DNA of 14,440 nucleotides from a virus (taxonomy: Duplodnaviria; Heunggongvirae; Uroviricota; Caudoviricetes): IMG/VR virus record IMGVR_UViG_2939147180_000003; one strand, 5' to 3'. The translations under genes and the position numbers were made by a program. Under the pieces are notes generated by a model, which was not told where the DNA came from, searched no databases, and worked only from the letters and a program-made list of their open reading frames with translations. The first letter of the stretch is position 1. Every line of letters starts with the position of its first letter. Shown here piece after piece: positions 892-14,440 of this stretch.

Positions 892-981
892 GGAGAGATG
901 CCGGAGCGGCTGAACGGACCGGTCTCGAAAACCGGAGTAGGGGCAACTCTACCGGGGGTTCAAATCCCCCTCTCTCCGCCA
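892..981 (+). tRNA. serU: tRNA-Ser (anticodon CGA)
   Basis: 90-nt sequence GGAGAGATGCCGGAGCGGCTGAACGG...CTCTCTCCGCCA: 7-bp acceptor stem GGAGAGA/TCTCTCC, anticodon stem CCGGT/ACCGG with loop CTCGAAA (anticodon CGA), long variable arm typical of Ser, T-arm GGGGGTTCAAATCCCCC, 3' CCA encoded. Matches enterobacterial serU from memory. Confidence 0.9.
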
Positions 982-1093: not shown

Positions 1094-2071
1094 TCATCTC
1101 ATTTTCTTGTTCAACGTGGGGCTGATTTTAACTTTCCTGTCGTAAACAAGTACCTGTGATTCTGTCTTATGACCACTGAATTTTTGCTTATCCCTGCCAG
1201 ATCCTTCATAGTCTGAGATCCCTTTAGCCTTTAGATCATGGAAGGTGCAATCAAGTGGCCTACCAAGTTCTTCAGAAGCCGCGTTTCTCGCTTTTCTCCA
1301 TGCTTCATTAAATCCCTTGTATGAATAACGCTCACCATACATTGTCCTGATAACAGGGCCATCCTGTCCCCATTCCCTGCAAATATCCACAGCCGCACTA
1401 AGACGCTCAGTCCAGGCTTTGATCTGTTTAATACCAGTTTTACCTTGCTGTATGAAAATTCCTTTATCAAGAATCTGATTCCAGTTCATTTTAAGAACAT
1501 CAGATACCCTTGCAGCGCAAAGATACGCAATTTCCATCGCGGCTTTAACTGCAGGTGTCGCATGAGTGAAGATAGCTATGTACTCTTCATCAGTTATGTA
1601 GCGGTCGCGCTGGGGTTTAGGAAACTTATCGACACCAACACACGGATTACCTGGTACATAACCACGCTGATAACCCCAGCGGTATACACGAGACATTGAA
1701 CTATGCTCGTGATTAGCCTGAACACGGCTTCTTTTACCACGTGCATCCATGTAGCGTCGGACGTGTTCTGGTTTAATGGCCTTTGCTTCTGCATCGCCGA
1801 AAACCGCTAACAAGTATTTTTCATGTGCCAGGTAATCTTTTTGTGTCCTGGGGGCAAGGTCTGCATAGTCAGCACTATTTAAAAATTTTTTCCACAATTG
1901 TTGAAAGGTGAGTAGTTTTTTTCGACCTTCAACGACTTTCTCGTAAGCTAACCAAACCTCCGCTTTAGAAGCGTTTGCTGGGGCTAGATTCTCGGTAGTA
2001 CCTCCTGGCTTCCAGTAGTAACCGGAAGGGCGGAAAAACACACCCTTCGGCATCCACTCATTCAGCATCAA
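1094..2071 (-). CDS. int: Phage integrase, tyrosine recombinase (lambda Int family)
   Basis: ORF 1094..2071 (-); first codon at 2071 is TTG, first ATG at 2068. Alignable to lambda Int catalytic region: CAARVSD (Arg I), QQGKTGIK (Lys), TFHDLKAKG (HxLR box but with Lys), SGHKTESQVLVYDRK (His, Tyr nucleophile). Adjacent to the tRNA 3' end. Confidence 0.9.
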   Translation of the reverse strand: MMLNEWMPKGVFFRPSGYYWKPGGTTENLAPANASKAEVWLAYEKVVEGRKKLLTFQQLWKKFLNSADYADLAPRTQKDYLAHEKYLLAVFGDAEAKAIKPEHVRRYMDARGKRSRVQANHEHSSMSRVYRWGYQRGYVPGNPCVGVDKFPKPQRDRYITDEEYIAIFTHATPAVKAAMEIAYLCAARVSDVLKMNWNQILDKGIFIQQGKTGIKQIKAWTERLSAAVDICREWGQDGPVIRTMYGERYSYKGFNEAWRKARNAASEELGRPLDCTFHDLKAKGISDYEGSGRDKQKFSGHKTESQVLVYDRKVKISPTLNKKMR

Positions 2072-2216
2072 TCACATCTTGGGATACAGACGCTTGGATA
2101 ATATCTGCTTCGCTATAGTCGCCCCGCATAACCAGAAAACGAGCCTCATCGGAGCAGAGGTAATCAACTGCCCCATCAAATTTCCCCTTGCTGGTTGGTT
2201 TGGTTACGTTGCTCAT
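2058..2216 (-). CDS. Small acidic hypothetical protein (52 aa), translationally coupled upstream of int
   Basis: MSNVTKPTSKGKFDGAVDYLCSDEARFLVMRGDYSEADIIQASVSQDVIDAE; ATG at 2216 overlaps the stop of the preceding ORF (ATGA), and its 3' end overlaps the int start. Occupies the usual excisionase position but is acidic, unlike typical basic Xis proteins. Confidence 0.4.
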   Translation of the reverse strand: MSNVTKPTSKGKFDGAVDYLCSDEARFLVMRGDYSEADIIQASVSQDVIDAE

Positions 2217-3806: not shown

Positions 3807-3826
3807 TTTGTGTGAAATAAAGCTAG

Positions 3827-5021
<1,195 letters not shown>

Positions 5022-5247
5022 CTAACATTTTTAACATGTTCAATGTGATTTTTAAGACGTACTTTGAAGTTTTCCATGCATCCTCCATGCAAAGTGAAAA
5101 CCTGCTGTTAAATCAAAGCAAGTCACAATCCCGGATAGGCTTCATACAAGCCAATCCCCCACAGGGATTGAGTTATGCAAGCGAATCAATCTCAGAGCTT
5201 TTAACATGTATGGAGCTTAGAGATATTGTCCGTTAGACCATATAAGC

Positions 5248-6597: not shown

Positions 6598-7437
6598 GTG
6601 GCGTGTCGTTATCAGTGGAGATTACTAACGCATGAACAGTTTATCAACACAATACCGCAGGTCGCAACTTGTAGCGCGGCCAGTTCCTGGTGGAGCAGGG
6701 CCGGTGCAGTTCGTGTAGAGCCATTCGTTGGTGGTGGGTCGGTATTCCTGAACAGCGAAAAGCACGCAGATTACCTGCTGGCGGACGTTAACCCGGACCT
6801 GATTAATCTGTATCAGATGTTAGCGGTCGTGCCGGATGAAGTGGAATTGAAGGCCCGCTGGATGTTCGAGCACATGCGGTCACCAGAGCGCTATGAGCTG
6901 ATCCGTTCCGAGTTCAACTCTCAGACGCTGGATGCTACTGAACGCGCAGCTGCATTCCTGTATCTCAACCGGCATTGCTTCAATGGTCTGATGCGCTACA
7001 ACCAGGCGAACAAGTTCAATGTGGGCTGGGGAGGCTACAAGGCTCCGTATTACCCGATGGATGAGATGAAAGCCTTCGCGGCTATGGCGCATAACTGCGT
7101 ATTCATGACGGCTGATTACCGCCGGACAATCAGCCTGGCCGGGAAAGGGGATGTGGTTTACTGCGATCCGCCTTACGAACCGATGCCGGGAACAACCGGA
7201 TTCACCGCCTACGCCGCTGGTGGTTTTAACTGGGAGAACCAGGTAGACCTGGCGAAGCAATGCGTATCAGCCTTTCACCGTGGGGCTCGGGTAGTGATTT
7301 CTAACTCATCTGCACCGAAGGTTCTCGACCTGTACCGGGAGCATGGTTTTAACCTGCAATTCATCAACGCGCGCCGTTCGATCTCCTGCAAAAGCAGTAC
7401 GCGGGAAGTCGCAAAAGACGTTGTAGCGATCCTTTAA
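6598..7437 (+). CDS. dam: DNA adenine (N6) methyltransferase, Dam family
   Basis: VEPFVGGGSVF (SAM motif I) and CDPPYEP (DPPY catalytic motif); alignable along its length to E. coli Dam from memory. Only in-frame start is GTG at 6598 with no good SD; same frame as the upstream gene, separated by a single TGA. Confidence 0.8.
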   Translation: MACRYQWRLLTHEQFINTIPQVATCSAASSWWSRAGAVRVEPFVGGGSVFLNSEKHADYLLADVNPDLINLYQMLAVVPDEVELKARWMFEHMRSPERYELIRSEFNSQTLDATERAAAFLYLNRHCFNGLMRYNQANKFNVGWGGYKAPYYPMDEMKAFAAMAHNCVFMTADYRRTISLAGKGDVVYCDPPYEPMPGTTGFTAYAAGGFNWENQVDLAKQCVSAFHRGARVVISNSSAPKVLDLYREHGFNLQFINARRSISCKSSTREVAKDVVAIL

Positions 7438-7446
7438 GGGGGCTAA

Positions 7447-8289
7447 ATGAAACTGACTTTACCATTTCCACCGAGCGTAAATAGTTACTGGCGCGCCCCG
7501 AGCAAGGGACCGCTGAAAGGCAGGCATCTGGTAAGCGAGACAGGGCGCAAGTTCCAGCAGGCAGCGAGAGCGGCGATTATTGAGCAACTGCGGGCCGTTC
7601 CCCGGCCATCCTCAGATCTGGCCGAGGTTCACATAAACGTTGTTGAGGGCGCGGGGCTTGAGCTTGATCCTGATGATGATTCACAGGTTCTTAAAGCGAT
7701 TGGTGGCGGTCGCCTGCTTAATATTGTCACCTTTACTAAGTCAGGGACTTACACTCCAACTAAAGGGACGAAAAGAGTGCGGGTGAAAGTTTGGGGAGCG
7801 GGGGGAGGTGGCCAGAATGCTCCAGTTAGTGTGGGCGCATCTGGAGGTTGTGCTGGTGGATTTTCGGAAGGGTTATTTAATATTTCTGATAACGAAACTA
7901 TATCTGTGACGATAGGTACTGGTGGCAGTGCTGTTGCTGCTGGTGTCTCGTCTAAAGGCGGGAATGGTGGTGATACAAGGTTCGGGAGTTTAATCTCAGC
8001 TACTGGAGGGAGTGGTGGCGGGGCTACAGTTCCTGCTGGAGGTATCGGAAGTGGCGGGAACATTTTAAATATTACTGGCGGAATATCTCAAGGTGGTCTG
8101 TATTATGGTTCTGATGCTTTTATTGGCGGGGCTGGAGGATCTGCATTTTCATCAACGGGTGGCAATGGCCACTTCGGTAGTTCTGGCGATGATGGCGGTT
8201 TCCCCGGCTCAGGTGGTGCCGGGGGGAATGGTAACTATTCATCAGGAAAAGGAGCGAATGGTTTAGTTTACCTTGAAGAGTTTTCCTGA
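7447..8289 (+). CDS. Chimeric ORF: RusA-like Holliday-junction resolvase N-terminal region fused to a glycine-rich tail-fibre-type C-terminal domain
   Basis: aa 1-96 RusA-like (LPFPPSVNSYWR, DPDDDSQV, GGGRLLNIVTF); aa 111-280 Gly-rich repeats (VKVWGAGGGG ... GANGLVYLEEFS). Synonymous codon usage shifts from G/C-ending to A/T-ending near nt 7720-7780. ATG 7447 with AAGGGGG upstream. Confidence 0.65.
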   Translation: MKLTLPFPPSVNSYWRAPSKGPLKGRHLVSETGRKFQQAARAAIIEQLRAVPRPSSDLAEVHINVVEGAGLELDPDDDSQVLKAIGGGRLLNIVTFTKSGTYTPTKGTKRVRVKVWGAGGGGQNAPVSVGASGGCAGGFSEGLFNISDNETISVTIGTGGSAVAAGVSSKGGNGGDTRFGSLISATGGSGGGATVPAGGIGSGGNILNITGGISQGGLYYGSDAFIGGAGGSAFSSTGGNGHFGSSGDDGGFPGSGGAGGNGNYSSGKGANGLVYLEEFS

Positions 8290-9359
8290 TTATTTTTGCT
8301 TTGAGCGTCCGCCCTTATTTTTGCTCTAATTTTAATTAGTGGCTTGTCTATTAATATTACACAAACGATCCCAAGTGCAATTGATATTGGGTAGCCTAAT
8401 AAAAAGATGGATAAGCCACGATTTTCACCACCAATAGCAAGCCATGCTAGAAATCCACCAAAATATTGACAAAGAAAAATTGGATAGGCCAGGTCACCAA
8501 ACCACTTGAGTATTTTCTCAAGATGTATGTTTGTCTTTATTTTTAATAATACCAGGGTTGTAAACAATGCTATTACATTATTGGTGTAGTAAAGTATTAT
8601 GTTGTACTGACCTAATGGATTAATTGTATATAAATGCCAATTGGTAATAAAAATCCCGATGCAAATAAATGTTATTAAAAAAGCTTTGTGTGGAGAAAGA
8701 TACATAGCTTTGAACTTTCTATGGGCAAAATAACCCAGAGAACCCATGCTAAAAGGAAGTGTTGCAGCAAGGAATGGGAAATACGCCATATCAAAAGAAT
8801 GGTGTACTACATATACGTAAGCATGATAAAGCAGTGAAAGCAGAATCGACGTAATGGCTGTAAATTTATTTCGGGCTATGAAAAGCCACAATAAAAAATA
8901 ACATGTTATCTCAACACCCACTGACCATGATGATGTGACTATTCTGAATCTATTACCATCAATAGCAAAGTGATAAATGGATGAAAAGGCACCGAATGGA
9001 TTTGCTACAGCATTATCAGAAAGGAAAGCCCAGGGGAAGATTAAGAGGTTTCCTAATAAATCTCCAGGTAAGAAATTGCCTGTCCAGTTTGAGTGGAATT
9101 CCTTTGCGGATGGAATTAATTTTATAATAAGAAAGCCCATGACGAGAAAAAATATATATGCCGGGAATAACCTCAGTATTCTATTTTTCCAAAACATAGA
9201 GAAGTTGAACTTGTATGTTTCATGCAAAATGTATGTTATTAAAAAACCACTAATAACATAGAAGCAATTCACTGCAAAGTTGCCAAGTGCAGGTATGCGA
9301 GCCGTTAAGTGAAAAGCAATGACGCACGATGCCAAAAAAAACCTTATTAGGCCAAGCAT
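8268..9359 (-). CDS. Acyltransferase family 3 integral membrane protein (O-antigen / polysaccharide O-acetyltransferase-like)
   Basis: 363 aa, about 10 hydrophobic segments, AT-rich coding sequence; resembles phage Oac/OafA-type acyltransferases. Start ATG 9359 overlaps the stop of the upstream small ORF; 3' end overlaps the convergent 7447..8289 ORF by 22 bp. Confidence 0.8.
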   Translation of the reverse strand: MLGLIRFFLASCVIAFHLTARIPALGNFAVNCFYVISGFLITYILHETYKFNFSMFWKNRILRLFPAYIFFLVMGFLIIKLIPSAKEFHSNWTGNFLPGDLLGNLLIFPWAFLSDNAVANPFGAFSSIYHFAIDGNRFRIVTSSWSVGVEITCYFLLWLFIARNKFTAITSILLSLLYHAYVYVVHHSFDMAYFPFLAATLPFSMGSLGYFAHRKFKAMYLSPHKAFLITFICIGIFITNWHLYTINPLGQYNIILYYTNNVIALFTTLVLLKIKTNIHLEKILKWFGDLAYPIFLCQYFGGFLAWLAIGGENRGLSIFLLGYPISIALGIVCVILIDKPLIKIRAKIRADAQSKNNQENSSR

Positions 9360-9622
9360 TATTTTATCTCCGCGCCAATATCGCGCATTTTATTTATTAC
9401 ATTGTTAAGTTGCTCATCAGACAGAACAAGCTGAGCTGCAATATAAAACAGTATGTGTCTTGACATTACCCTGGGGCTCTCTCCGCCAGTGTATTTCCGC
9501 CATTGGCTATCGCTGGCTACACCTGCGAGCCCTGCCATTTGGTTTCCGGAGTAATTTAGTGCGGATTTCAGTCTGGCTAAATCTTCCTGCGTTGGAGGGG
9601 TGTATTTATTTATTAAAATCAT
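9359..9622 (-). CDS. Small XRE-like HTH protein upstream of the acyltransferase
   Basis: Track ORF 9359..9646 trimmed to ATG 9622; segment YSGNQMAGLAGVASDSQWRKYTGGESPRVMS fits an HTH_3-type pattern; stop/start overlap with the acyltransferase gene (TAATG). Confidence 0.45.
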   Translation of the reverse strand: MILINKYTPPTQEDLARLKSALNYSGNQMAGLAGVASDSQWRKYTGGESPRVMSRHILFYIAAQLVLSDEQLNNVINKMRDIGAEIK

Positions 9623-9723
9623 TCTCTTATTTAACCGTTTAAACACGTAAGGCGATGTTAGCCCTGAAGGGGCGGGGCGTCAATCTTAATTGCTTCATTG
9701 AAAAGATGAAGACAGGAACAGGT

Positions 9724-11718
9724 ATGGACAAAAGATATAATACCGGCAATCCAAGACCTTCAAATAGCATGAAGGATCTGAATGATAACGCCCTGGCGTA
9801 CGATGATTTCCTGAACAGCGAAAGCGATACTTTTATAGATCGTTTTGGTAACGCCCAGGATACGATAATTGGGGCTACTAAAAAAATGGCAGCTGCTACC
9901 GACGCTGTTATTGATGAAGCCCGCCAAAACCTGATCCCTCTCAGCCGGCAGTACATGACGCTGGCGGCGGCGCAGGCGGATATTGCGAATATTCCGGCAG
10001 GTTCAACAACCTATGTCCGCAGTCAGGACGGAAGCTCTCTGGCCGATGAGTATATCAACCTCGCTGGAACGCTGCAGCCAACCGGACGGCGGATGGTTCG
10101 TGACGACTACGCATACCAGGTATCGCCAGACAGCGTGACCCTGGCAGCATATGATCCGGAGACTTCCCGCGTGGCTCCATTTTTAAATACAAGCGGCAGA
10201 TTAATTCAAATCGGTCCTGACGGAAAATATTACGAACTTTTAACCCAACAAGAATCCGAACTCTATGCGCTGGGCCGGGAGGGTTCTATACCGCAGTTTA
10301 TTGGCGGTGAAAAAGTGTGGCGGATGACGGTTGATTCAACCACAAACCAGATCGTTGAAGCTTATACGGTTGGTGGGAAGCACTGGATTTACTCAGACGG
10401 TGGCCTGGTAGCTGTTAATAACGGAAATGGCGGTGGTGGTGGCGACGATGATGCCAACCAGCTCCCTGAGTATGGACTTCATTTGTCAGGGTCTACTGTG
10501 TACCCCTACTCAGAGACAGTGCCTGTATGTTTTATCTTTGTGACTGCTGGGCAATCCAACGCTCGAGGATATTGTCCTGACGCCGATCAAACCATTGTCG
10601 CAGCAACGCCGATATATCCTGATAACGCTTTCATGCTCAGCGGCGGGGTTAGGCGTACAGGGACACGCAGCACTACTCTGGTGCCACTGGTTGAGGCAGT
10701 AAGTGGGACAGATAAAGAAACGGCCGCAAGCGGCCTCGCGAACACCTTCATTCGCGATATGGCTGCAGCTACCGGAATCATGCCGCGCACGCTATCAATC
10801 GTATGTGCGCAGTCTGGTCAGGCTTACGAGTACCAGAAACGGGGTAACCAGGTATATCAGTATCTGCTCGATTCAATCGAAGACTGCGTAACGGCCTGTA
10901 AAGCACGCGGCTGGCTGCCGATTGTTCTCTGCGTTGACTGGATGCAGGGAGAGTCCGACGAGGACTGGTCAGGATTACGAGAAGGAATGTATGAATCACG
11001 GATGAGGCAGTACCAGAGACAAATCACCAGCGACATCATCGCAAGAACGGGTCAAAACGAACCGCCGATTATCGCCATTACCCAGCTGGGGTATGTCAAT
11101 GACGGGCATGGTGCATTTACAGGCCAGTACGCGCGACTGGCGTCGACGCGATTGCACGGAAAAGAGCAATTCAGGCTGGTCAATAGTTTGTACCAGTACG
11201 ATTTTATTTCAGACGGTCTGCACTTGACGTGTGCGGGCCAGAACCGGCGCGGAGCAGCTGTGGCGAGAGCGCTTCTCCAGGAGTGGTTTACGAGCGGCTG
11301 GTCAGGGATGGTTCCGACCAGTTTCGTGTGGAACTCACCCACGCAGATACAAATCAATGTCCCAGCGTATACGAACCTGGTGCTGGACACGACTACGATC
11401 AACACCTCCGGTCTGGCCAATTACGGCTTTAGCTACACGGATGAGACTGGTGCTCCACCTGCTATATCGAGCATCGCGATCAGCTCGGACGGCAAGGGCG
11501 TGCTGATTAACCTGGCGACCGCCCCCTCTGGACGTTTTGGGCGCGTTTCCTATGCGACAGCAGAAAACCCACTTCAGAGCGGCGCATCTGTAAAACCTTC
11601 CGGGCGGACTCTTGGTGCAAGAGGGTGTGTTCGATCTTCCGCTGGAATCATATGGGTGTATGACACATCCGTGACTCTTTACGACTGGCTCCCCGCTTTT
11701 CGTATTAACGTTTTCTGA
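9724..11718 (+). CDS. Tail-fibre/tailspike-like protein with central SGNH-type (sialate O-acetylesterase-like) hydrolase domain
   Basis: Track ORF 9655..11718; likely start ATG 9724 (AGGAACAGGT upstream). GQSN block at aa 276-279 (nt 10549-10560, FIFVTAGQSNARG) and DGLH block at aa 497-500 (nt 11212-11223); Gly-rich linker NNGNGGGGGDDD before the esterase domain. Tail-fibre role inferred from context. Confidence 0.7.
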   Translation: MDKRYNTGNPRPSNSMKDLNDNALAYDDFLNSESDTFIDRFGNAQDTIIGATKKMAAATDAVIDEARQNLIPLSRQYMTLAAAQADIANIPAGSTTYVRSQDGSSLADEYINLAGTLQPTGRRMVRDDYAYQVSPDSVTLAAYDPETSRVAPFLNTSGRLIQIGPDGKYYELLTQQESELYALGREGSIPQFIGGEKVWRMTVDSTTNQIVEAYTVGGKHWIYSDGGLVAVNNGNGGGGGDDDANQLPEYGLHLSGSTVYPYSETVPVCFIFVTAGQSNARGYCPDADQTIVAATPIYPDNAFMLSGGVRRTGTRSTTLVPLVEAVSGTDKETAASGLANTFIRDMAAATGIMPRTLSIVCAQSGQAYEYQKRGNQVYQYLLDSIEDCVTACKARGWLPIVLCVDWMQGESDEDWSGLREGMYESRMRQYQRQITSDIIARTGQNEPPIIAITQLGYVNDGHGAFTGQYARLASTRLHGKEQFRLVNSLYQYDFISDGLHLTCAGQNRRGAAVARALLQEWFTSGWSGMVPTSFVWNSPTQIQINVPAYTNLVLDTTTINTSGLANYGFSYTDETGAPPAISSIAISSDGKGVLINLATAPSGRFGRVSYATAENPLQSGASVKPSGRTLGARGCVRSSAGIIWVYDTSVTLYDWLPAFRINVF

Positions 11719-11727
11719 GGATAAAAA

Positions 11728-12528
11728 ATGAGACTGATTTACACACTAACTGGACTGAATAACCCCTTACTCCCTGTGTACTCACAAACAGCGGCAGAGA
11801 AAGCGATCTCAGAACTATCCCCATCAGTATGGACACCAGTGAAGACAGAGTTTCTAAAAATGGGGTCTGGTGCAAAAGTAGTAGCTATCTCTAACCGATT
11901 AGATGGCGGACTTTTCAAGTCACTGGAGACCCTCGAGCCATCCACAAAGCTGAATGGTTCTGTTTTGCAGGGGCTTAATTTCTCCGGTGCATCCGGCATG
12001 GCTGGTGATACGGCGGTGGTTATGGACGCAAACATCAATACTTTTGCATTCATCTATCAGCTGCCAGGTGGGGCGCTTCCGGCTACGCCACAGGACAGAG
12101 CGGTTATCGCAACCCAGGAAAGCACACCTCATGGCGTCGGCATTCGTACAACGTCAGCAGGTTCATTCCCGATTTTTCTGAATGGAGGGATCGAGGCCGA
12201 TCTGGCATTTACTCCTAACAATATAGGGCAATCTTTATTCTGCGCTGTAGTTATGTGCTCTAACAAGGCTGCTGGATCCTATGCAATTGCATACCAGCGG
12301 TCAGATCAGTCTGCAGTGACCAGCCGACAAGTGACGGGCTATACAATCCCAGCGTATAGCCCGTCTCAAAAAATGAGTATTGGCGGAGCAGGCAATGGTT
12401 CAGTGTCTCCGTTAACATCCGTTTTGTCAGAATGTTTGGTTTTCCCCGGCAAATATGCATATGGGACCAGCACACTGGATGTCATCCTGGCATATCTGAT
12501 GGAGAGGATTGGAAAAATCACGGCCTAG
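11728..12528 (+). CDS. Hypothetical protein (266 aa) co-transcribed with the esterase tail-fibre gene
   Basis: GAGGA 7 nt upstream of ATG 11728, 10 bp after the upstream stop; no family motif recognised. Position is analogous to tail-fibre assembly or distal fibre genes. Confidence 0.55.
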   Translation: MRLIYTLTGLNNPLLPVYSQTAAEKAISELSPSVWTPVKTEFLKMGSGAKVVAISNRLDGGLFKSLETLEPSTKLNGSVLQGLNFSGASGMAGDTAVVMDANINTFAFIYQLPGGALPATPQDRAVIATQESTPHGVGIRTTSAGSFPIFLNGGIEADLAFTPNNIGQSLFCAVVMCSNKAAGSYAIAYQRSDQSAVTSRQVTGYTIPAYSPSQKMSIGGAGNGSVSPLTSVLSECLVFPGKYAYGTSTLDVILAYLMERIGKITA

Positions 12529-12721
12529 AATTTGCCGAATGCATCCGAGTCGGTCCGCAGCGATGGAGCAGGAGAGAGTCGGCGGCCGCCGCCGGATAAT
12601 GACTGAAGAAGTGGTGGAGCGGTGCCGCAGAATGCTGGAGAACGGCGCTACCCGGCAGCAGGTGGCTGATGTGACAGGCGTGGACGTGAAAACAATCTAC
12701 AAGTACCTCCCGGCGACTTGA
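12509..12721 (+). pseudogene. Remnant of a Hin/Gin/Pin-type serine DNA invertase (C-terminal HTH fragment only)
   Basis: AAMEQERVGGRRRIMTEEVVERCRRMLENGATRQQVADVTGVDVKTIYKYLPAT resembles the invertase C-terminus (GRIGGRRPKLT ... RQQ.A...GV..T.Y+Y.PA) with an apparent internal deletion; the resolvase catalytic domain is absent. Confidence 0.5.
12662..12717 (+). repeat. Direct repeat copy 1 (invertase 3' end, about 55 bp)
   Basis: TGGCTGATGTGACAGGCGTGGACGTGAAAACAATCTACAAGTACCTCCC; related copies at 13241-13292 and 13449-13505. Confidence 0.6.
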
Positions 12722-12798
12722 AGGCAAAGATTTCACTACTTTTCCTGATATGTTACGTTTGGCTTAATCAATTCATTCAGCTTTGAAAACAGTTTGGT

Positions 12799-13221
12799 TT
12801 GTTCGTGAACGGTAAGAAAACAATAAGTTTTGAGCAATTTTTAACTATTAACAGCAATCTTGTTTCCATCTCAGATACATGGGCTGACTTGTGGGCGTTA
12901 ATTTTTCACACGGGTTTAAGCGCTGGAAGGCTGCTGAGTATTCGATATGATGATATTGATGGTGACTTGATACTGATACGAAAACAGGGTCACCTGAAGG
13001 AGCTACGTGTTAAATCAACCCCTCCAGTGGAGGGGATCATTGCTCGTAGAAGAGAACGCTATCCAGAAGATGTTTTTTTATTTCAGAGCCATTCTAACCG
13101 TGTGAAGTACCAATGCCGGCCGGTCACTATAATTGCTTTCAACGCCGCTTTACGTCGCGCCGCTAGATCATTACCAGACGTTAACGTAAGCAGTAGTAGC
13201 GCGAGAAACATACCGGACTAA
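12799..13221 (+). pseudogene. Tyrosine-recombinase-like fragment (FimB/FimE-like core, truncated at both ends)
   Basis: No ATG anywhere in frame (TTG/GTG only); ALIFHTGLSAGRLLSIRYDDIDGDLILIRKQG resembles the box-I region of small tyrosine recombinases; the HxLRH and Tyr-containing C-terminal region are missing. Followed in frame after one stop by a copy of the invertase-3' repeat. Confidence 0.35.
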
Positions 13222-13240
13222 CCGCCTGTCCAGTCGCGTG

Positions 13241-13292
13241 TGGCCGATGTGACAGGCGTGGGGGTGAAGACTATTTACAAATATTTGCCAGT
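13241..13292 (+). repeat. Direct repeat copy 2 (invertase 3' end)
   Basis: TGGCCGATGTGACAGGCGTGGGGGTGAAGACTATTTACAAATATTTGCC; high identity to copy 1 with scattered substitutions; encodes VADVTGVGVKTIYKYLP in the frame of the upstream recombinase-like ORF. Confidence 0.6.
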
Positions 13293-13304
13293 ACAATACG
13301 GCGA

Positions 13305-13338
13305 TAAAAACCCCCTTGAGCAGGCACACTCAAGGGGA
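13305..13338. terminator. Strong hairpin, terminator-like on the minus strand
   Basis: Perfect 9-bp stem CCCCTTGAG (13313-13321) / CTCAAGGGG (13330-13338), 8-nt loop; A-run 13307-13311 upstream gives a T-run after the hairpin on the minus strand; no U-tract on the plus strand. Confidence 0.3.
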
Positions 13339-13448
13339 AAATACTACATAACATCATTGCTGTGTGCGTCTTTGCGCTCGTCTATCTTCCAAGAATATGC
13401 CTAAAGCTTCCAGATATTTCTGGTCTGAGCTGTTACATCATGGAGTAG

Positions 13449-13505
13449 GTGCCGATGTGATAGGTTAAGAGCGAAGATGATCTGTAAGTACCTTCCGACG
13501 TCGAG
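13449..13505 (+). repeat. Direct repeat copy 3 (degenerate)
   Basis: GTGCCGATGTGATAGGTTAAGAGCGAAGATGATCTGTAAGTACCTTCCGACG; clearly lower identity than copy 2, with in-frame stops. Confidence 0.45.
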
Positions 13506-13841
13506 GGGCAATGACCATGAATTTGGGTCTATACCATCCCAATTCATATATTCTTTGTAAGTCTATGAAATATAGAGCAAAGTATTCTGTTCGAAATGAA
13601 CCATATGGAATAGCCAAAGGCTAAAATGCCCAGAGTAAAAACAACAATCAGCAAGTCCGTCTGTGACATCTTATATCCATTTTGCAGTAGCAGGTTTTGA
13701 GAAAAGATAGTTCATAGTTGGCACATAGACAACATAATCACTAAGTGAAACCAATATCAGAGGCTAAAAGGTGACTGGTTTCCTCCTCAGTGTTCCTGAT
13801 TGATAGCTGGAACCTGTATTGATCAGATCTCTTAATGAATC

Positions 13842-13861
13842 TACTGTATATAAAAACAGTA
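13842..13861. promoter_or_regulatory. LexA box (SOS operator)
   Basis: TACTGTATATAAAAACAGTA: CTGT-N8-ACAG with AT-rich spacer, full match to the LexA consensus and, as I recall, identical to the E. coli umuDC operator. Lies 18 nt upstream of ATG 13880, just before GGGAGGTG. Confidence 0.8.
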
Positions 13862-13879
13862 TTTTCGGGAGGTGAAGTT

Positions 13880-14038
13880 ATGCCGCGAAACTCAGATATC
13901 GAAATAGCCTGGCGTCAGGCAATTGTCATTGAGCCTAATGGCCGTCGCACCGTGACAACGTCCGGTTTTATCCGGGAACTCGCAAAAGTTAACTGGATAT
14001 GGTCACCGCGCCAGGCTAACCAGTGGATAGAGCACTGA
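13880..14038 (+). CDS. Small protein (52 aa) immediately downstream of the LexA box
   Basis: Track ORF 13835..14038 trimmed to ATG 13880 with GGGAGGTG 5 nt upstream; MPRNSDIEIAWRQAIVIEPNGRRTVTTSGFIRELAKVNWIWSPRQANQWIEH; no family recognised. Confidence 0.5.
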   Translation: MPRNSDIEIAWRQAIVIEPNGRRTVTTSGFIRELAKVNWIWSPRQANQWIEH

Positions 14039-14047
14039 CATTCCGGG

Positions 14048-14440
14048 ATGTCTCAACGCAGGAAGGCGATGAGCTCACGTTCCAGTTATACAACCCAAAC
14101 GGAGGGCTATAACGTGGGATTTCCGTCGCCAGCTGCTGACTATGTTGAACGGCGTCTGACCGTTGATTCACTCTGCGGTACCGGCCCCAATACTCGGATA
14201 GTACAAACAGAAACCGGCTATGCCGTAGTGGATTGCTTCGTAAAACCAAAGCAAGGAGATACCGTTTTAATTCAATACGGCGGCGGCACTGATTTTGCAA
14301 AAATTATGGGCCGGGCATTTATTACACGAGACGGTGAAGCGTTGGAAGGTGAGGCCCTGGATGATGTTACAGTTGTCGGGGTAGTGACATTCGTTATCAA
14401 TCGGATAGGGAAGGATGATGATGATTATCCAGTAATATGA
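14048..14440 (+). CDS. UmuD-like (peptidase S24 fold) protein, apparently lacking the Ser nucleophile motif
   Basis: GFPSPAADYVERR at aa 24-36 matches the UmuD region around the Cys24-Gly25 cleavage site; C-terminal DDVTVVGVVTFVINRI resembles the UmuD C-terminal strand; TGYAV occupies the place of SGDSM. Alternative start ATG 14069. Stop TGA is the last codon of the window and overlaps an ATG (ATATGA). Confidence 0.65.
   Translation: MSQRRKAMSSRSSYTTQTEGYNVGFPSPAADYVERRLTVDSLCGTGPNTRIVQTETGYAVVDCFVKPKQGDTVLIQYGGGTDFAKIMGRAFITRDGEALEGEALDDVTVVGVVTFVINRIGKDDDDYPVI

Follow-up and report, generated by a model that had tools for sequence, protein, structure and literature searches.

An in-frame junction between rusA and a glycine-rich tail-fibre gene is very probably the scar of a large deletion in a decaying Escherichia coli prophage

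Our initial question was how one open reading frame in a viral DNA stretch of 14,440 nucleotides (the window in what follows) comes to combine the beginning of a Holliday junction resolvase gene with the glycine-rich end of a tail fibre. The preliminary description of this DNA had left two readings side by side, a deletion scar and a genuinely new fusion architecture. We are close to certain that a ∼25-kb deletion in a decaying E. coli prophage left this open reading frame as its in-frame scar, and that the frame is an ordinary fusion pseudogene.

The open reading frame occupies positions 7447–8289 on the plus strand, runs from ATG to TGA and encodes 280 amino acids, as described before. It is contained in the open reading frame list of the window and is real and composite. 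A good ribosome binding site (taaGGGGGctaaATG) is located just 5′ of the start codon and corresponds to the native site of rusA. Each of the two halves belongs to the family that had been proposed for it. In the PHROGs collection phrog_34 (“RusA-like Holliday junction resolvase”) is matched by residues 1–63, and only these, with E = 1.8e-12, and residues 81–280 match tail families (phrog_863, E = 2.8e-44); the glycine-rich part is also matched by the tail-fibre PHROGs 863, 6202, 454, and 21412. The proposed glycine-rich C-terminal domain is likewise found with Pfam, where residues 99–276 (window 7741–8274, plus strand) align with PF21722 (Gly_rich_2, E = 2.5e-9, profile positions 3–223 of 226), by homology a receptor-binding fibre tip. 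This is the only domain detected in the chimera with Pfam, which returned no RusA match at E ≤ 0.1. The open reading frame list and the annotation contain no Q, lysis, terminase, head, or tail genes anywhere in the 14,440-nucleotide window, in agreement with the preliminary description. RefSeq labels positions 7447–7636 as “RusA family … incomplete; missing C-terminus,” that is, as a partial pseudogene, and either leaves the remainder of the frame unannotated or places there an internal “glycine-rich domain-containing protein” of 168 amino acids. In public databases the chimera is called “phage tail protein” or “hypothetical protein.”

Alignment to intact related prophages maps the endpoints of the deletion to nucleotide 7634. 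A megablast search with window positions 7300–8400 against 5,426 complete E. coli genomes covered the whole query in nine genomes, and in the remaining genomes among the matches listed, similarity begins at query base 335, which is window position 7634. With 97–98% identity, the converse query (6598–7640) matched 40 further E. coli genomes and 23 Klebsiella/Escherichia phage records, and in both sets similarity stops at 7634/7635. Compared base by base, the open reading frame tracks an intact rusA gene through 7634 and a fibre gene of E. coli HS from 7634 to the stop codon. The thymine at 7634 is the sole base common to both parents at the join (1-nt microhomology). The 5′ fragment of the prophage rusA gene (7447–7634, plus strand) comprises codons 1–62 and the first two bases of codon 63, without the catalytic region, and the fibre gene contributes codons 45–261 and the stop codon in their native frame (7635–8289, plus strand). 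Codon 63 (ATA) straddles the join and retains its isoleucine, and the translated product consists of RusA residues 1–63 followed by residues 45–261 of the HS fibre protein.

Base composition and protein alignments place the boundary somewhat farther to the right. The reported switch in third-position codon usage is present (GC3 is 0.60 to the left of the junction and 0.33 to the right), but its maximum-likelihood change point lies at about nucleotide 7662 rather than at 7720–7780. In tblastn alignments with the closest phages the RusA similarity reaches chimera residue 117, with ∼63% overall identity. These alignments overrun the true junction, probably because the pentapeptide DDSQV occurs by chance in both parents, at residues 94–98 of the intact RusA and at residues 77–81 of the chimera (window 7675–7689), and we did not accept them as a sign of a longer RusA part. 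The shared pentapeptide probably also misled the preliminary description, which had assigned the first 96 residues to RusA; this segment is RusA-derived but only 63 residues long, and the earlier boundary had been set about 100 nt too far to the right.

The left parent is a prophage rusA gene. The 188-nt piece differs from the intact 378-nt rusA of MLI106K4 at two silent nucleotides, and the encoded amino acids are 100% identical. The stretch from Dam to rusA shares 97–98% nucleotide identity with Klebsiella and E. coli lambdoid prophages and phages that carry an intact RusA of 125 amino acids. The intact protein matches PF05866 (E = 7.7e-16, profile positions 1–124) and can be aligned over its full length with E. 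coli RusA (PDB ID 1Q8R, E = 1.4e-15). The 63-residue fragment alone does not match RusA in Pfam even at E ≤ 10. Because Pfam is negative for both the open reading frame and the fragment, the RusA origin is established through nucleotide collinearity and PHROGs.

In the alignment with the E. coli enzyme, RRRDLDN pairs with RRRDIDN (residues 71–77 of the intact prophage protein) and LDD pairs with EDD (residues 93–95). The catalytic residues, which we take to be Asp-70, Asp-72, and Asp-91 in E. coli numbering, correspond to Asp-74, Asp-76, and Asp-95; chain 2H8C, a D70N mutant, has an asparagine in the column of Asp-70. Because its RusA part stops at residue 63, the chimera contains none of the three aspartates. 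The substitution of a catalytic acidic residue that had been suggested earlier (DLAE for DLDN) is a misalignment, as the true counterpart RRRDIDN is located past the breakpoint and has been deleted, not substituted. The chimera thus shares with RusA proteins (PF05866; 1Q8R/2H8C) an N terminus identical to that of the intact 125-residue prophage enzyme, and the fragment sits in the slot usual for rusA in the nin region of lambdoid phages, after Dam in the early-right operon. The gene order Dam-RusA is also found in MLI106K4, MIN9, and phage vB_EcoS-733R5. The chimera differs from RusA in having the first half only: descent from rusA is evident, but a full-length profile match (∼120 amino acids) and the catalytic triad are missing, the segment with the three aspartates having been deleted. 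As far as can be judged from its sequence, the 63-residue piece cannot be a resolvase.

The right parent is a discrete 786-nt gene of E. coli HS that encodes a protein of 261 amino acids (WP_001310746.1). Right of the junction, the translated chimera is 100% identical to residues 45–261 of this protein. It is a separate gene in the HS prophage remnant, as in the prophages of ECCTRSRTH03 and W21, which are much more complete, and lies directly after the genes for baseplate gp46, J/gp47, and YmfQ, which is the tail-fibre position of a contractile tail. The exact 261-residue sequence is present on 769 contigs, and its 90% identity cluster takes in proteins from E. coli, Shigella, and Klebsiella. 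We rejected ECCTRSRTH03 as a parent, as its prophage has a different integration site and an early region truncated by IS1. The first ∼66 residues of the 261-residue protein match the N termini of many tail-fibre PHROGs and are also common to the otherwise different fibre of MIN9. The matches of the intact parent to PHROGs 1858, 17105, 2617, 6859, and 1833 (residues ∼2–82) are gone in the chimera. The gene that follows on the minus strand (8268–9359) codes for an acyltransferase-3 protein, an O-acetyltransferase-like cargo (PF01757, E = 2e-15; phrog_3333, O-acetyltransferase). It overlaps the fibre gene by 22 nt and is its native downstream neighbor, in the same arrangement in HS, W21, and ECCTRSRTH03.

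From residue 41 to its C terminus, the intact 261-residue protein aligns with gp24 of cyanophage Pam3 (PDB IDs 7YPX/7YFW, E = 0.0017), a weak and compositionally biased match. Pam3 gp24 is a “simplified” fibre made of one protein in three parts, an N-terminal helical domain that docks to the baseplate and accounts for most contacts within the trimer and most of the trimerisation energy, a TNF-like domain, and a glycine-rich tip that recognizes the receptor (PMC9608196). Like gp24, the 261-residue parent has a Gly_rich_2 domain and adjoins the baseplate genes J and YmfQ in prophages with contractile tails, and the chimera retains the whole glycine-rich domain. The chimera differs from gp24 in that it has lost the first 44 residues of the ∼66-residue N-terminal module, two-thirds of it, and in that it is not located beside baseplate genes but follows Dam and the rusA fragment. 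Pam3 gp24 needs a chaperone, gp25. The enterobacterial gene differs from the gp24-gp25 arrangement in having no chaperone gene after it, the next gene being the convergent acyltransferase. We found no tail-fibre assembly or chaperone gene after the 261-residue gene in our loci L007, L008 (gene at 19871–20656), and L001 (the HS remnant, gene at 11871–12656), where the overlap with the acyltransferase is again 22 nt. A tail-fibre assembly gene is present in MIN9, which has a different fibre allele.

Both parental modules occur in one element. The window contains a tRNA-Ser gene (anticodon CGA; 892–981, plus strand, located with ARAGORN) next to mtfA, which forms the left attachment site, and a prophage integrase of the tyrosine recombinase type (1094–2071, minus strand, from the open reading frame list and the annotation), which marks the left end of the remnant. 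Positions 1–2062, including the integrase, are 99.2–99.3% identical to the corresponding loci of MIN9 and MLI106K4. Related prophages of HS, MLI106K4, and MIN9 are integrated at the same site, serU/mtfA, with yodB on the far side. In MIN9 this prophage is nearly complete (∼43 kb) and holds both gene modules. Its early genes are ordered int, xis-like, ParB, repressor, Cro, YmfL, DUF4222, replication gene (O), Dam, RusA, DUF968, and DUF1133, and are followed by lysis genes, terminase, a lambda-like head, sheath and tube, baseplate (J), YmfQ, tail fibre, cargo genes, and umuD-like remnants. On the left, similarity between the window and MIN9 extends to the rusA breakpoint; it resumes at the right end. 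In MIN9 the equivalent of the rusA breakpoint (position 14142 of locus L011) and the start of the fibre gene (39023) are ∼25 kb apart, in line with the earlier proposal that the in-frame fusion marks a large deletion junction. The MIN9 fibre allele differs in its C-terminal part and the identity to the window ranges from 91 to 98%; we consider MIN9 a relative and not the direct ancestor. A direct ancestor with the window's own alleles flanking the undeleted 25 kb was not found.

We propose a single deletion of ∼25 kb, which would have arisen by illegitimate recombination in a contractile-tailed prophage of lambdoid type at the tRNA-Ser (CGA)/mtfA site. Its left end lies in codon 63 of rusA, within the early-right operon, and its right end at codon 44/45 of the small fibre gene behind the baseplate genes. 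The DUF968 and DUF1133 genes downstream of rusA were lost with it, as were the lysis genes and every head and tail gene, and the ends were joined at the one shared thymine. The one-base overlap argues for an illegitimate, presumably microhomology-mediated event rather than for homologous or site-specific recombination. The two genes were joined in the same frame by chance, the rusA start codon now reading through to the stop codon of the fibre gene, and because the prior chance of such a join is one in three, it needs no special explanation. The product would have neither parental activity and most likely has no function, because it contains no RusA active site and no fibre docking module and there is no virion to which it could attach.

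The HS prophage is the complementary remnant. Window positions 7634–14440 are 100.000% identical to E. coli HS over 6,807 nt, up to the end of the window. The HS remnant at serU/mtfA (L001, NC_009800.1 2056940–2081706, and L006) keeps terminase, portal, baseplate, and the intact 261-residue fibre gene, and it has lost its early region and the genes from capsid to tail. The early loss, which begins inside int and stops shortly before the terminase, amounts to ∼14.5 kb, and the loss of head and tail genes to ∼7.8 kb. What remains matches the late region of MIN9 at ∼92%. In the 3′ part of the integrase gene, the window and HS differ at one position, and the window agrees with HS where MLI106K4 differs. 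We infer that the window and HS both descend from one ancestral lysogen, whose prophage decayed independently in the two lineages.

A different history would be that two prophages lay in tandem at serU and recombined. The part from int to rusA would come from a Klebsiella-type lambdoid siphophage, and the fibre gene with the right end from an older remnant of the HS type; the late genes between them, the hybrid att site, and the left part of the HS-type remnant would subsequently have been deleted. The two sides of the junction do resemble such elements: the Dam-rusA stretch is 97–98% identical to prophages and phages such as MLI106K4, KpF5, and vB_EcoS-733R5, which are siphoviral, with HK97-type heads and tape-measure tails and not contractile, the HS remnant is identical to the part right of the junction, and both phage types use the same att site. 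A tandem intermediate is, however, not needed, as a single MIN9 prophage at this very site combines the early module with the late module for a contractile tail. The pattern of single nucleotide differences in the integrase is common to the window and HS, as a single ancestor predicts, which mildly disfavors the two-prophage history, and we have seen no genome with the tandem arrangement. We regard this history as improbable; under it, too, the open reading frame would be a deletion scar.

The rusA-fibre junction is not the only scar in the window. The Dam-type methylase gene of the early operon (6643–7437, plus strand) matches PF02086 with E = 1.3e-45, but only from profile position 23. Compared with MIN9, a 1.3-kb deletion with a 2-nt “TA” microhomology at 6716/6717 has removed the DUF4222 gene and the replication (O-like) genes. 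In Dam itself, unrelated sequence takes the place of the first ∼29 codons, with the conserved KWAGGK stretch among them (the intact N terminus in MIN9 reads MSKPFLKWAGGKYTQLADLFVHIPAGKRL). RefSeq still calls this gene an intact “DNA adenine methylase” of 264 amino acids; we consider its activity doubtful. At window positions 2062–2210, ∼3.3 kb beside int are missing relative to both MIN9 and MLI106K4, among them a DUF4224 xis-like gene. The integrase N terminus is altered as well (LMLNEWMPKG... in the window and MGRKRAPGNEWMPKG... in MIN9). The remnant is probably unable to excise.

An IS5-family element, annotated as ISKpn26 (∼3824–5024, transposase at 3973–4953 on the minus strand), has terminal inverted repeats of 16–19 nt and sits between the ParB-side genes and a RacR-type repressor. 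Of the nine genomes with the junction, six contain this element, and the locus is ∼1 kb longer in the other three. In PCN061, the only one of these three that we examined, IS1A and a “type I restriction endonuclease” gene are found at the IS5 position. Because the rusA-fibre deletion is common to all nine genomes, it is older than the IS events. The window resembles other cryptic or defective E. coli prophage remnants in its several sharp junctions with 1–2 nt of microhomology, in its IS5/IS1 insertions, and in having lost the genes for excision, replication, lysis, and morphogenesis with the repressor region and cargo retained. We see no difference in kind from such remnants; the locus is particular only in that one junction is in frame and creates a long chimeric open reading frame.

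The region to the right of the chimera (8268–12528) contains a cargo or host-range module. The acyltransferase-3 gene is followed by a gene for an HTH-like protein of 95 amino acids, both on the minus strand. The module also contains an open reading frame of 687 amino acids, in which a conserved tail-fibre-type N terminus is combined with a SASA/sialate-O-acetylesterase domain (phrog_4201, E = 1.3e-66), and one of 266 amino acids with no match in Pfam or PHROGs. The latter two are swapped elsewhere, for an SGNH/GDSL hydrolase in ECCTRSRTH03 and for larger hypothetical proteins in W21. The combination of an acetyltransferase with an acetylesterase-type fibre suggests a module for serotype conversion and receptor destruction. 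Two short open reading frames at 12509–12721 and 13240–13404 share the peptide ...VADVTGV(D/G)VKTIYKYLP... and represent duplicated fragments of an HTH gene, which in relatives is annotated as a partial pseudogene. Near the right end of the prophage they are followed by frameshifted remnants of a umuD-like (DNA polymerase V) gene.

Of the 5,426 complete E. coli genomes, 9 contain the junction, invariably at this locus and with 99.9–100% identity over the shared sequence. The nine carriers were sequenced independently, by different laboratories in different countries, from pigs, humans, river water, and salad. The exact chimeric protein is encoded on 386 contigs from several sources. Four variants were found, each with a single-residue change, a number that gives no statistical power for a test of selection. 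A tblastn search with the chimera against 50,697 phage records returned none that covers at least 80% of the protein, and intact phages that encode the full-length architecture, which would have spoken for a conserved protein, were not found in this set. Of the two readings offered by the preliminary description, the deletion scar stands, with parents that are 98–100% identical and collinear, a sharp single breakpoint between them, the undeleted layout in one element, and a clonal distribution. A new protein architecture is not supported, as only nine E. coli loci, nearly identical to one another, contain the junction.

These carriers also bear on a third account, in which the fusion has been domesticated and has a function, for example as a soluble glycine-rich receptor-binding domain that takes part in superinfection exclusion or surface modification. 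The frame is open in every carrier seen, that is, in nine complete genomes and hundreds of contigs, it is preceded by the native ribosome binding site, and its Gly_rich_2 domain is complete. Its retention is, however, uninformative with regard to selection because the carriers are too similar at the locus, and the architecture is absent from phages and from other loci (50,697 phage records and 5,426 E. coli genomes). In addition, the N-terminal helical bundle, which provides trimerisation and docking in the Pam3 homologue, is truncated, the 63-residue RusA piece has no catalytic residues, and the neighboring genes are scarred too. We therefore regard a functional fusion as very unlikely. It is also very unlikely that the fusion is expressed from the early-right operon as a stable protein and displays an intact TNF-like and glycine-rich receptor-binding tip without its baseplate anchor; if this were true, the unanchored tip might bind the host's own receptor and benefit the host, for example by excluding phages that use the same receptor. 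That two prophage regions were mis-joined in assembly, to which only the abrupt change in composition could point, can practically be dismissed given the identical junction in nine independent complete genomes and the exact protein on 386 contigs.

Taken as the scar of a deletion, the chimera carries little biological weight, as it represents textbook prophage decay by microhomology-mediated internal deletions. Its practical value lies in annotation, since some pipelines treat the chimera as an intact gene. The remnants in HS and in the lineage of the window, each of which keeps what the other has lost, make a tidy case for dating the steps in the decay of one prophage, and the locus illustrates how a junction that happens to be in frame yields a long chimeric open reading frame.
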